A stretch of DNA of 64,000 nucleotides from Magallana gigas (Eukaryota). The stretch spans positions 50,654,001-50,718,000 of the forward strand of contig NC_088858.1 in the NCBI RefSeq assembly GCF_963853765.1. Reading direction: 5' to 3'. The position numbers are program-made. This document shows positions 1 to 3,000 of this stretch, in pieces (within the stretch, counting starts at the first letter, position 1; every line of letters starts with the position of its first letter).

Positions 1-3000
1 TGGTACGCCACTTTTGAAAATTGAAAATTAATTATTAAATTAGGTGTAAATCAGTGATTAATTTTCTTTCTTTTACCTTTAAAAGGGAGCAGTTCTCCAG
101 AGACCATGGGAAGGCTCATGAAGGAGCTGGATTCAGTCCATACAAAGCGTTCCAACATTGGACACACTTACCTGACTTTAGAGAGGGCTTGGTACATATG
201 CGGTGACTCCACCTCTTACACACCTCACACTCAACCCAAACAATCTTTCGAGACTTTCCAGGAGCATTGTAATCACCACATATGCAACAAGTGACTTCAT
301 TGTCAGACTCCTCAACGAAGCCCATGGATTCGTCAGAGTCAGAGTCATTTTCGTCATCACCAGAATCTGTGTCCATGTCACTGTCACTGTCTTCCGAGTC
401 CGTCAAGTCTATGACCACAGGAGCAACCTCCTCATCCTGGACTCCGTCGAGTTTCCACAGTTTTTCTTCGACCTCTCTTATCACGTGACTCTCTACCTTA
501 CGCCACTTCTCAACCCCATAAGTTGATCTAGCCTGATTAAAGAGTTCCTTCACTTTATCTTTCTTAAATGTGGAATTGCTCCTGGCGACGAAACTTTTTA
601 ATTCAGCCCAGACCAACTCAATAGGATTAAGCTCACAGTGATAGGGAGGTAGACGCAAAACTGTGTGACCTGCCTTTGAAGCCAAATCGTCTATAACATA
701 TTTAGGACGAGGCTTATGTTGCTTCACCAATGTGATCAATTCAGCCTTGATCATTCCCGGGGCGTAATGGATACCCTTTCTATCAAGCCAAGACTGGATC
801 TCGGCCTTCGGTGTCGACGAAGTCGGACACTTAGACTCAGGATCCAGATGACTGTGATAGGAAGCATTATCCATCACTATGACTGAATTAGCCGGTAGGT
901 TAGGGAGCAACTGCTCAGTGAACCACTTCGTAAAGTTTTCCGAGTTCATCTCATCATGATAATCCTGGTTGCCTGTTTTCGACTCGAAAATGAGAGCAGA
1001 TCCCGGGATCATGCCCACAGCCGAAGAACCTGCATCCACAATTATCAGACGAGAGCCTTTCCCAGATGGGACAAAACGCCCATGACCTCCACGATGTGAC
1101 TCAAAGGCAGAGGTAGATGTCCTAGAACAGTCCACCCAATCTCCCCTTGCTACATGATTGGTGTTCAACCAAGTCTCATCCAAATACACAATAGGACGAC
1201 CCTCCTCTCTAAACTTCCTAATGGACCTCAGGTAAGTATGTCGCATACTTACGATGTCATTCCGATCTCCAATGTAGCGTTGGTTGGAACCTGCTTTGTA
1301 GAACCTGAAAAAATGGATATCATGTTGTTATGCACCTATCATTTTTCATCACATAATTTTATTTTGGTTTGAATGTTTTATTGTCATTGGTCTTTGTCCA
1401 TCATAGTCTGTTAAAATTTTACATTTTTAACATCATCTTAAGTACAAGATATATTGTCAATTTGCCATGTTAGGATGTAGACACCAATAATGAAGCTTTA
1501 AATGCAACCATGACACTCACTGACAGGTCCATCTATGGGCTATGGTATTCCAGGACCGTCATGACCTGTGAGGCATGTTTAATTGGCCATGATATGCTTT
1601 AGTAAAGTCTACCTGTAATTTTTATTTTTTCAGATCTACAGTGCATATGACTCTTCAGTTTTACGTCATGACAAAGTAATTTGTCTTAATGTGCTTACCT
1701 GAACCCAAGATCCTTCACGAGTCTCCCCAATGAAGACTTGAAGAGCCTGACTCCCTTTTCTACCAGAACATCCGACAGTTGGCGCAATGAAACGTACTGG
1801 CCCTTCAACTGCATGTCATGGATGGTCCTCTTCACCAGGTCTGCATCGAAGTCATCCAGCTTCCTATCGGGTCCAGGTTTCTTCTTTGGAGCAGGGACTT
1901 GCAAATCCTCCACCACCATATCAACTGGGTCTTGCATAACTTTTCTCTTTAGAGTATTCTCAGATATTCCTATAGATGTAAAAACAGATTTTATTAAATA
2001 TGTATTTACTAGTACATGTACGATGTAAACAAAACATTTGTGTTGCATGGATTAATACAAATTCATGCTAACAATTTTATAAATTTAGGTCTCTAAGCTA
2101 AGTCACTCAGAGAACCTACTGGCTTGCTATCTGTGAATGTAAGTTGTCATCCATGGTGCTTTGTGCCAATGTTGAATTTAATTTTCATCATTTGTTTTAG
2201 GAAAAAAATGCATCCAAAGTATCAAAAAGGATATCGATTTTTAAAAGGAATTTAATGAGTTTTCTATTTACAAAGACTTATTTTTACCTGTTGCGAGTGA
2301 GAGTCTTTTCAAAGGGTTTTTGATATTCTTCACCCTCCCCTGCTTGCATTCCATGGTAAAATGCTCAAATATCTTCTTTAAAAGATCTGTAGGCTGTAGA
2401 AAAGAACATGCATGTTTTAGATTAAGAACACTAGAATCATTGCATAGGTGTTGGAAGCAGGGGGCTGGGGGCTTTTGCAAAGTTAGTCCTAACCATTAGG
2501 CATATAGCATCAGGGAGGGGCCACCCCCCCCCCCCCATTCAGGGAGGGGCCAACCCCCCCCCCCCCACCCCCACTTCTTCTCGCAGCAAGCATAATTGTT
2601 CATAAATTTAAATATCAAATAAAATATCAAAAGTGATATTGAAAATTGGACCCACGGATTAGGAATTTTTCATGATTCTGGAGAAAAAAAATTTTTGGTA
2701 GGTAAGATTCTTTTTTGGAGTAATAGTTATACCCCTCCCAAACGGATTAGAATTTTCATGATTTTGGGAATTAGGTTTTTTTTTGCTTGTCAGATTTCTG
2801 ATGATTAGTCTAGCCCCCCCCCCCCCCCACTTTCAATTTGCTTCCGACGCCACTGTATTCATTTGATTCAATACCTAATCATGTATAAAATTAACCTACA
2901 GAAAAGCAAAAAACATCGAATTCTATTGAGCATTTTAATGATGTCAAATTCATTACTGCACACGCTTTAAGATTGCATGATTTTAACATTAAACATGAAA

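Follow-up and report, generated by a model that had tools for sequence, protein, structure and literature searches.

Elements of the Tc1/mariner type are the standard example of transposons that ask little of their host, integrating almost at random into TA dinucleotides (TATA for Sailor), and long terminal repeat (LTR) elements are known to have gained chromatin guidance through chromodomains. In the Sailor group, as described in the main text of Shi et al. 2021 (PMC8533490), the spacer between the second aspartate and the glutamate of the catalytic triad spans 78-111 residues, mostly 82 or 83, and DD83E is called 'frequent' in Mollusca. The same source attributes the length of this spacer to inserts of 13 and 36 amino acids (34 + 13 + 36 = 83), places a further insert of 12-15 amino acids between the two aspartates, names Callosobruchus as a host genus and includes Crassostrea gigas in the founding set of four Repbase elements. 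In a different DDE system, the PHD finger of RAG2 binds histone H3 trimethylated at lysine 4 (H3K4me3), guides attachment to chromatin and stimulates cleavage (PMC10462144). We analysed a stretch of 64,000 nucleotides from the oyster Magallana gigas (NCBI RefSeq assembly GCF_963853765.1, contig NC_088858.1, positions 50,654,001 to 50,718,000 of the forward strand; hereafter the window), which carries on its minus strand a gene for a Sailor-like transposase with an acidic linker and a PHD finger at its C-terminus. The best explanation overall, to which we assign a probability of roughly 0.55, is a well-preserved copy of a PHD-tailed mollusc Sailor lineage whose product would work as proposed below.

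The assignment to Sailor is carried by the catalytic core. All protein searches were made with the three exon peptides separately (P0003, P0002 and P0001 for exons 1, 2 and 3; Table 1) rather than with the joined 508-residue product. Pfam detects DDE_3 in the exon-3 peptide above its cut-off (46.7 bits, E 3.8e-12). The second aspartate, D145, is separated by 78 residues from the glutamate of HCE; the glutamate of NPIE, which we take to be the catalytic residue in Tc1/Sleeping Beauty numbering, lies five residues further, so the spacer measures 83 and the element is rightly called DD83E. About 90 residues separate the two aspartates in Tc1-like transposases, and given that figure the 102 residues found here agree with the Sailor insert at this position. 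The three motifs fit the Sailor consensus of I/VVYLDET, VIIMDNA and HCELNPIEL (PMC8533490), the second with a single I-to-V change and the third, HCELNPIEL, exactly. Of 191 aligned relatives, 134 contained both motifs needed to measure the D-E spacer; a length of 83 is seen in 18 of the 19 tail-bearing rows, and among rows without the tail 82 is commonest (58 rows), followed by 81 (30) and 83 (15).

Wider comparisons point the same way. The window protein groups with hundreds of DD81-83E proteins, those from Callosobruchus included, in trees built without an outgroup, and it is 43-50 % identical to arthropod proteins with an 82-residue spacer. The family is large, with 7303 representatives at E <= 0.001 and 598 at <= 1e-30, and most relatives carry the precomputed label PF27940, cited here by accession only. 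IS630 family transposase is the sole NCBIfam model matched; exon 2 aligns weakly with positions 43-110 of the IS630-family profile (E 5e-4), and every Pfam helix-turn-helix match in the relatives falls below its cut-off. The predicted structure of the exon-3 peptide has a mean predicted local distance difference test score (pLDDT) of 74.9, with most of the core above 85, and all 18 PDB matches returned by Foldseek at E <= 0.001 are catalytic domains of Mos1, Sleeping Beauty or Metnase/SETMAR (E 1e-7 to 3e-4). A single-sequence PDB search with the same peptide returned no transposase; its top match, the sigma-70 acidic region at E 0.03, was rejected as a composition artefact.

The frame is open across three exons. 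Coding parts of 67, 271 and 1189 nucleotides (stop included) add up to 1527, a number divisible by three, and yield 508 codons, with the codons split at the two junctions restored as G and R. The junction sequences are CAACAG/gtaaaa and tctatag/GAATAT for the first intron and GTTCAG/gtaagc and ttttttcag/GTTCTA for the second; G+C content is 45-48 % in the exons versus 28-33 % in the introns, and each intron frame contains 7-13 stops. The catalytic core, the acidic linker and the PHD finger all lie inside the uninterrupted third exon. A RefSeq-named Crassostrea angulata protein, P0006 (LOC128161331 isoform X2), matches the window as three separate blocks whose limits coincide with the modelled junctions; it begins with MECKQGRVKNIK, reads ...ATGISENT... 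and ...DLGFRFYKAG..., and its initial methionine corresponds to the window ATG at 2354. Furthermore, the IS630 profile is colinear through residues 23-170 of P0006, spanning both junction sites. Another oyster-like protein, P0010, starts with the translated 3' end of intron 1, where 17 of 18 residues are identical to the window. Intron 1 is therefore shared by at least one other copy, and copying took place at the DNA level, introns included.

At the 5' end, the 13 in-frame codons upstream of the ATG align with relatives (P0007 at E 7.7e-10 and P0014 at E 5.7e-4) and, judged by their position, would form helix 1 of the DNA-binding region. Reading upstream from them, a stop is reached without any in-frame ATG. 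Either they are 5' untranslated region and the product lacks helix 1, or they are coding and joined to a further upstream exon. A conserved in-frame stretch directly after an AG acceptor suggests that an upstream coding exon is missing from the model. The N-termini of the relatives hold no conserved motif by which an upstream start exon could be located. The initial annotation had placed the upper limit of the gene at 2393, which is the first base after the acceptor and takes in the conserved codons; the modelled start codon lies at 2354.

The C-terminal tail consists of the acidic linker, predicted to be disordered (pLDDT below 50 over residues 296-334), and a C4HC3 finger with the spacing C339-x2-C342-x16-C359-x2-C362-x4-H367-x2-C370-x9-C380-x2-C383. 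Shuffling the last 66 residues produced this pattern in 1 of 100,000 trials, and shuffling the whole exon-3 peptide produced it in none of 20,000. A profile was built from an alignment of 20 tail-bearing relatives whose rows were picked for this pattern (A1). Against the PDB it matches KDM5B (2.5e-5), ALFIN-LIKE 3 (8.5e-5), Bye1 and KDM5A (3e-4), together with BPTF, PHF2, TAF3, PHF8, PHF13 and others; it also matches the Sleeping Beauty catalytic domain at E 0.0038. In a language-model atlas the tail lies nearest to PHD clusters (ALFIN-LIKE, score 0.91). The predicted model of the tail (pLDDT 75; strands 26-28 and 35-37, helix 51-58) finds PHD fingers best in Foldseek, for instance AL3 bound to dimethylated H3K4 (H3K4me2), with a best E of 0.036 and TM-scores of 0.4-0.6, and all listed matches are PHD fingers except one, the FYVE domain of EEA1. 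A single-sequence PDB search with the tail gave weak matches only (E >= 0.045). The PHD domain call is sound. An intact spliced frame, a DDE triad with 83-residue spacing, an acidic linker, a complete C4HC3 finger of PHD nature and a Sailor-type identity had all been put forward in the initial annotation, and each of them is borne out here, the last by the fit of the three motifs, the spacer arithmetic and the mollusc range to the published description (PMC8533490).

What the finger might bind is a separate matter. In alignment A1 the eight zinc ligands are invariant, as the choice of rows dictates; W365, two residues before the histidine, is kept in 20 of 20 rows and W356 in 19 of 20. Both align with the two tryptophans of the KDM5A finger, which we take to form its methyl-lysine cage. 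Most of the PHD fingers matched by the A1 profile are presumably H3K4me2/3 readers, and the titles of the fold-match entries back H3K4me reading for ALFIN-LIKE 3 and 1, ceKDM7A and BPTF. As judged from these aligned positions, the chance that the finger reads methylated H3K4 falls a little short of even.

A transposon of the same lineage could instead use its C-terminal finger to hold the DNA of its own ends. The piggyBac finger does so, binding TGCGT in the transposon ends and being essential for transposition, and some PHD fingers bind DNA (PMC5861402). The window finger shares the extreme C-terminal position with that of piggyBac, the oyster finger is net basic, and PHF1 with DNA is found among the fold matches. 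However, the ligands here are canonical C4HC3 rather than the C5HC2 of piggyBac, the best profile matches are fingers of the histone-tail-reading kind, and the two tryptophans are kept at the candidate cage positions. Moreover, no piggyBac chain occurs in the best 60 of 80 PDB matches, and the long adjoining acidic linker would repel DNA. We consider a finger devoted to the element's own ends unlikely.

The preferred reading, a transposase with a histone-reading tail, would divide the labor as follows. The putative N-terminal helix-turn-helix region encoded by exons 1 and 2 would bind the element ends, and the core, an RNase-H-fold DDE domain with D42, D145 and E229, would cut and join DNA in the manner of Tc1/mariner transposases. 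The acidic linker and the PHD finger would hold the transposase on H3K4-methylated nucleosomes or gate its activity there. Insertion or activity could then be biased to promoter-proximal open chromatin, as the RAG2 acidic hinge and PHD finger do for RAG1. The analysis establishes the reading frame, the motifs, the likeness of fold, the PHD identity, the clade and the multiplicity of copies, while histone binding, chromatin targeting and the present mobility of the window copy are properties that we infer. More broadly, a mollusc branch of the IS630-Tc1-mariner group may keep a histone-reader module resembling the RAG2 tail, with active-chromatin marks steering or licensing insertion, and so form a convergent, self-contained counterpart of RAG1/RAG2; we offer this tentatively and regard it as possible rather than probable.

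The PHD tail is a character of one Sailor clade and is not unique to the window locus. The C4HC3 pattern is present in 23 of 266 proteins, and in 21 of the 33 that have at least 140 residues past the NPIE motif. In a FastTree tree of 191 rows, built on the catalytic region only, all 14 rows with C4HC3 and all five rows with a remnant fall in one 28-row set with a support of 97. An IQ-TREE quick tree of 67 rows, made up of that set and 39 others (28 of these drawn randomly from the remaining 163), gathers the C4HC3 and remnant rows in one 27-row set (SH-aLRT 94). In this tree an oyster group (99) adjoins a Mytilus group (99), and the rows from ticks, beetles and bees lie elsewhere. Fingerless rows of the clade mostly end inside the acidic stretch and so may be truncated models. 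The named members are all molluscs, bivalves together with a gastropod: Crassostrea, Saccostrea, Mytilus, Solemya, Patella and Ruditapes. An organism is named in 36 of the 120 listed rows, of which 25 are mollusc (12 with the full finger) and 11 arthropod (none with the finger). The profile search added no further named host beyond molluscs, and a protein search with the tail only, limited by shared words, gave 29 candidates, of which just 4 were oyster proteins.

Elsewhere in the family, some acidic tails carry no finger. In P0045, P0051, P0074, P0091, P0095 and P0112 the acidic stretch is followed by a different C-terminal motif, DDRQ.ID.AL ... R.DLT.RLQ.YD..FL.SVLPLP. With this alternative conserved tail motif in another Sailor-like group, the Sailor tail seems to be a site of module exchange.

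Copies of the lineage are several and diverged, as counted in protein records, which may mix paralogues, alleles, isoforms and sister-species orthologues. The proteins closest to the window gene come from oysters (Crassostrea/Magallana gigas, C. angulata, Saccostrea echinata). Besides the window's own there are at least five distinct Crassostrea-like sequences (P0004, P0006, P0007, P0010 and P0027), 80-96 % identical to one another or to the window; identities among oyster-group sequences range over 72-96 %, with 89 % between the window protein and a Saccostrea protein. The protein cluster of P0006 has 83 members. Nine Mytilus coruscus and four M. edulis proteins stand among the 120 listed rows, those with a complete core being spread over several subclades. 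Inside the window itself, tblastn and blastn found no second copy of the gene. Several of the relatives are damaged: P0006 has a frameshift inside the finger, P0005 is without the last CxxC, P0013 has one cysteine changed, P0020 is cut off, P0004 carries a 29-residue insert in the core, and P0027 lacks the core and is a duplicated N-terminus plus tail. In P0007 (C. angulata LOC128163207) a piggyBac-type N-terminus (PF13843, precomputed) is joined to a PHD-clade Sailor copy, and the fusion point is the same acceptor as at window position 2393/2386. Elements that decay or become rearranged typically show lesions of this kind. Of the 56 positions with at least 90 % conservation across 19 non-oyster relatives, the window copy retains all 56, the sister copies lose 0-4, and one fragment loses 12 of 41.

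These records bear on the choice, posed by the initial annotation, between a Sailor subfamily with a chromatin-directed tail and a domesticated transposase gene. A tail shared throughout the clade, together with several diverged and partly broken copies, argues for a copy of a transposon lineage rather than a domesticated gene, and it is very probable that the locus belongs to a PHD-tailed, multi-copy, intron-bearing Sailor lineage. Of the two readings the chromatin-tailed subfamily is thus the favored one. Judged from the protein records, the single orthologous copy without decaying paralogues expected of a domesticated gene is not what is seen: the same or sister oyster genomes contain several copies, diverged and in part broken, and Mytilus has many. 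Under domestication the window copy, or the whole oyster group, would be a host gene that has lost its ends and acts as a chromatin-bound DNA-binding or nuclease factor through its PHD finger. Several features suit such a gene, namely a frame intact across three exons with canonical introns, the complete set of 56 conserved positions, the lack of visible inverted repeats, the 89 % identity to the Saccostrea protein, and RefSeq-type gene models in C. angulata and C. gigas. There is also a precedent in TLEWI, intron-bearing bivalve Tc1-like elements without inverted repeats that have been proposed as co-opted, and full-length Sailor is listed in only 4 of 17 mollusc species (PMC8533490 Table 1). 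On the other side, the catalytic triad and all family-conserved residues are retained, as a mobile element needs; the finger shares its exon with the core and so was not captured from a host exon through splicing; and the surroundings are rich in transposons, with an LTR element and a Harbinger-like open reading frame (ORF) in the window (Table 1). That introns and missing terminal inverted repeats (TIRs) are compatible with domestication, as first annotated, holds insofar as no TIRs were seen. As evidence it is weak, since another oyster copy shares the intron-1 sequence and the window includes no more than 115 bases of 3' flank. Domestication is unlikely.

A further possibility is an immobile relic that has lost its ends or part of its N-terminus, is intact only because it is young and has a finger without present function at this locus. 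In favor of a relic, the only ATG lies downstream of the conserved helix 1, the search for inverted repeats found none, and the sister copies are visibly decaying. Against it, a frame of 508 codons across three exons keeps every one of the conserved positions, the C. angulata model uses the same Met start, and the acceptor immediately upstream suggests a further exon. A relic is very unlikely.

For the preferred reading, a well-preserved copy of a PHD-tailed transposon, a number of observations count on the debit side. No TIRs above shuffle level link bases 1-118 to 2354-3770 or to 8572-11000, and among the 47 pairs in an inverted-repeat scan of 1-5000 only AT-rich 20-mers bridge the two flanks; this test is weak since only 115 bases after the stop codon lie inside the window. 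No TATA duplication was found with the same 115 bases of 3' flank. The frame from the ATG at 2354 is without the conserved first helix, so the DNA-binding domain as annotated may be incomplete. Copy number is drawn from protein records, and the trees contain neither an outgroup nor named Sailor reference sequences. The profile check suggested in the initial annotation succeeded for DDE_3, but the PHD finger stays below the Pfam gathering cut-off of 24 bits, with a score of 14.7 bits when the whole peptide is searched and of 22.3 bits (E 1.3e-4) for the isolated tail. The tail model has no Foldseek match at E 0.001, the best being 0.036. H3K4me reading is drawn from alignment to solved readers and from their presumed cage residues, and a further residue, Y345, is kept in 3 of 20 rows only. 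Finally, the oyster finger has an excess of six basic over acidic residues, counted in the peptide, which would also suit DNA binding.

PHD fingers are already known in other transposase superfamilies; a PHD-tailed Sailor lineage is apparently unrecorded in the searchable literature. The main text of the Sailor paper (PMC8533490) contains neither 'PHD' nor 'zinc', and 'intron' occurs there in a reference only. No mention of a PHD finger in Sailor or Tc1/mariner elements came up in the searchable literature, and subscription journals, Repbase Reports or the Sailor supplements may record one. Within that literature no paper combines 'DD82E' with 'PHD', 'Tc1-like transposase' and 'PHD' meet only in papers unrelated by title, and neither 'Sailor' nor 'PHD' occurs in a bivalve transposon survey. 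The gene structure suggests that the published mollusc Sailor transposases may be incomplete, with N-terminal exons and the meaning of the tail missed. If the finger does read histones, a reader-type PHD throughout a clade would show that the IS630-Tc1-mariner group also evolved chromatin-guided behavior, as RAG did via the RAG2 PHD finger, and would provide a natural model for chromatin-targeted vectors of the Sleeping Beauty kind. If the intact oyster copy were domesticated, it would be a new transposase-derived chromatin factor.

The window as a whole is AT-rich (33.6 % G+C, CpG observed/expected 0.74), with a single run of N at 23661-23813, and an Rfam scan of 1-4000 gave no match. The upstream flank of the gene contains runs of 10-14 C or G bases beside short GGGAGGGG-like words (2460-2580, 2815-2830 and 3225-3240). 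At a distance of 1.4 kb upstream of the gene is an LTR retrotransposon that looks young and intact, with LTRs 99.3 % identical and a 4-bp target duplication (ACCT/ACCT); its gag-pol is one open frame with zinc knuckle, protease, reverse transcriptase, RNase H and integrase. Further along, an ORF without a Pfam match follows that of a Harbinger/PIF-type transposase. An array of near-identical genes on the minus strand, with a period of about 5.28 kb across the last six, encodes Gly/Tyr-rich products with a hydrophobic N-terminal leader (MIRLIFFVVLFSVAF...), one copy of which gave no Pfam match. The 76-base piece at 2779-2854 has matches of 76 % identity in six units of this array, one per unit (33016, 38295, ...), and is probably a small dispersed repeat.

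Table 1. Coordinates of the Sailor-like gene, its parts and the neighboring features (positions in the window)
Feature	Position	Strand	Details
Stop codon TGA	116..118	-	
Exon 3	119..1304	-	first base completes split codon AGG; encodes P0001, 395 aa
Intron 2	1305..1698	-	394 nt, 33 % G+C; GT 1698-1697, AG 1306-1305 (gtaagc...ttttttcag)
Exon 2	1699..1969	-	271 nt; peptide P0002; second half of N-terminal DNA-binding region and basic stretch KKKPGP
Intron 1	1970..2287	-	318 nt, 28 % G+C; GT 2287-2286, AG 1971-1970 (gtaaaa...tctatag)
Exon 1, coding part	2288..2354	-	ATG at 2354; MECKQGRVKNIKNPLKRLSLAT and first base of Gly codon; peptide P0003
In-frame stretch upstream of ATG	2355..2393	-	PTDLLKKIFEHFT; 13 codons; directly after AG acceptor 2395-2394; second AG 2388-2387
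First catalytic Asp, D42 of P0001	1178..1180	-	in IVYLDET; motif in PMC8533490
Second catalytic Asp, D145	869..871	-	in VIVMDNA; 102 residues between D42 and D145
Catalytic Glu, E229	617..619	-	in HCELNPIE; 83 residues between D145 and E229
Acidic Ser/Asp/Glu linker	290..418	-	residues 296-338 of P0001 (43 residues); 19/43 D/E, no K/R
C4HC3 PHD finger	155..289	-	C339-C383; candidate cage positions W356 (238-236) and W365 (211-209)
LTR retrotransposon	3767..8571	-	LTRs of 140 bp, 3767-3906 and 8432-8571; gag-pol frame 4248-8372, 1374 aa
Harbinger-like ORF	27036..28406	+	456 aa; DDE_Tnp_4 transposase domain
ORF after the Harbinger-like ORF	28750..29325	+	191 aa
Tandem gene array	18584..19045, 31596..32009, 36816..37280, 42097..42561, 47378..47842, 52647..53126, 57930..58409, 63217..63696	-	products of 137-159 aa

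Of the known systems, Sailor (Shi et al. 2021, PMC8533490) is the nearest, sharing with the window protein the three catalytic motifs, the long D-E spacer and the enlarged D-D spacer. As described in the main text of that paper, Sailor transposases comprise helix-turn-helix motifs, a nuclear localization signal and the catalytic domain, and those of molluscs measure 338-432 amino acids; the window gene, in contrast, has 508 codons and adds two introns, the acidic linker and the PHD finger. Sailor elements have TIRs of 18-1362 bp and a TATA target duplication (PMC8533490), neither of which was seen in the window with its 115 bases of 3' flank. TLEWI (Puzakov et al., bioRxiv 10.1101/656579) resembles the window gene in its bivalve host, its spliceosomal introns and the lack of visible TIRs; it has a low copy number and raises the same question of transposon or domesticated gene. 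The TLEWI elements belong to pteriomorph bivalves and are of the DD36E type, with the motif YQDNDSKH, a length of 322-378 amino acids and no mention of a PHD finger in the accessible text of the preprint. An identity with TLEWI was rejected on the spacer, 83 rather than 36 in the window, and on the motif, VMDNASYH rather than YQDNDSKH.

Zinc fingers are found in transposases of other superfamilies as well. Like the window protein, the piggyBac transposase bears a cross-brace zinc finger at its extreme C-terminus, but the ligand order of that finger is C5HC2 and its target is a DNA motif within the transposon ends (PMC5861402), whereas the finger described here is C4HC3 with reader-like tryptophans. 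Ginger1-9_HM and Rehavkus likewise combine a DDE transposase with an extra PHD finger; Ginger is integrase-like and has its PHD finger alongside an Ulp1 protease domain, Rehavkus is Mutator-like, and neither belongs to IS630-Tc1-mariner (PMC2836005, PMC6446971). The closest architectural likeness is offered by RAG2 and the RAG2-like proteins of RAG-like transposons, in which, as in the window protein, an acidic hinge stands directly before a C-terminal PHD finger tied to a DDE recombinase (PMC10462144). In that system the finger belongs to a second protein, the partner of a Transib-like recombinase; here finger and catalytic core are parts of one protein and the transposase is Tc1/mariner-like, a resemblance of design for which no sequence kinship is claimed.

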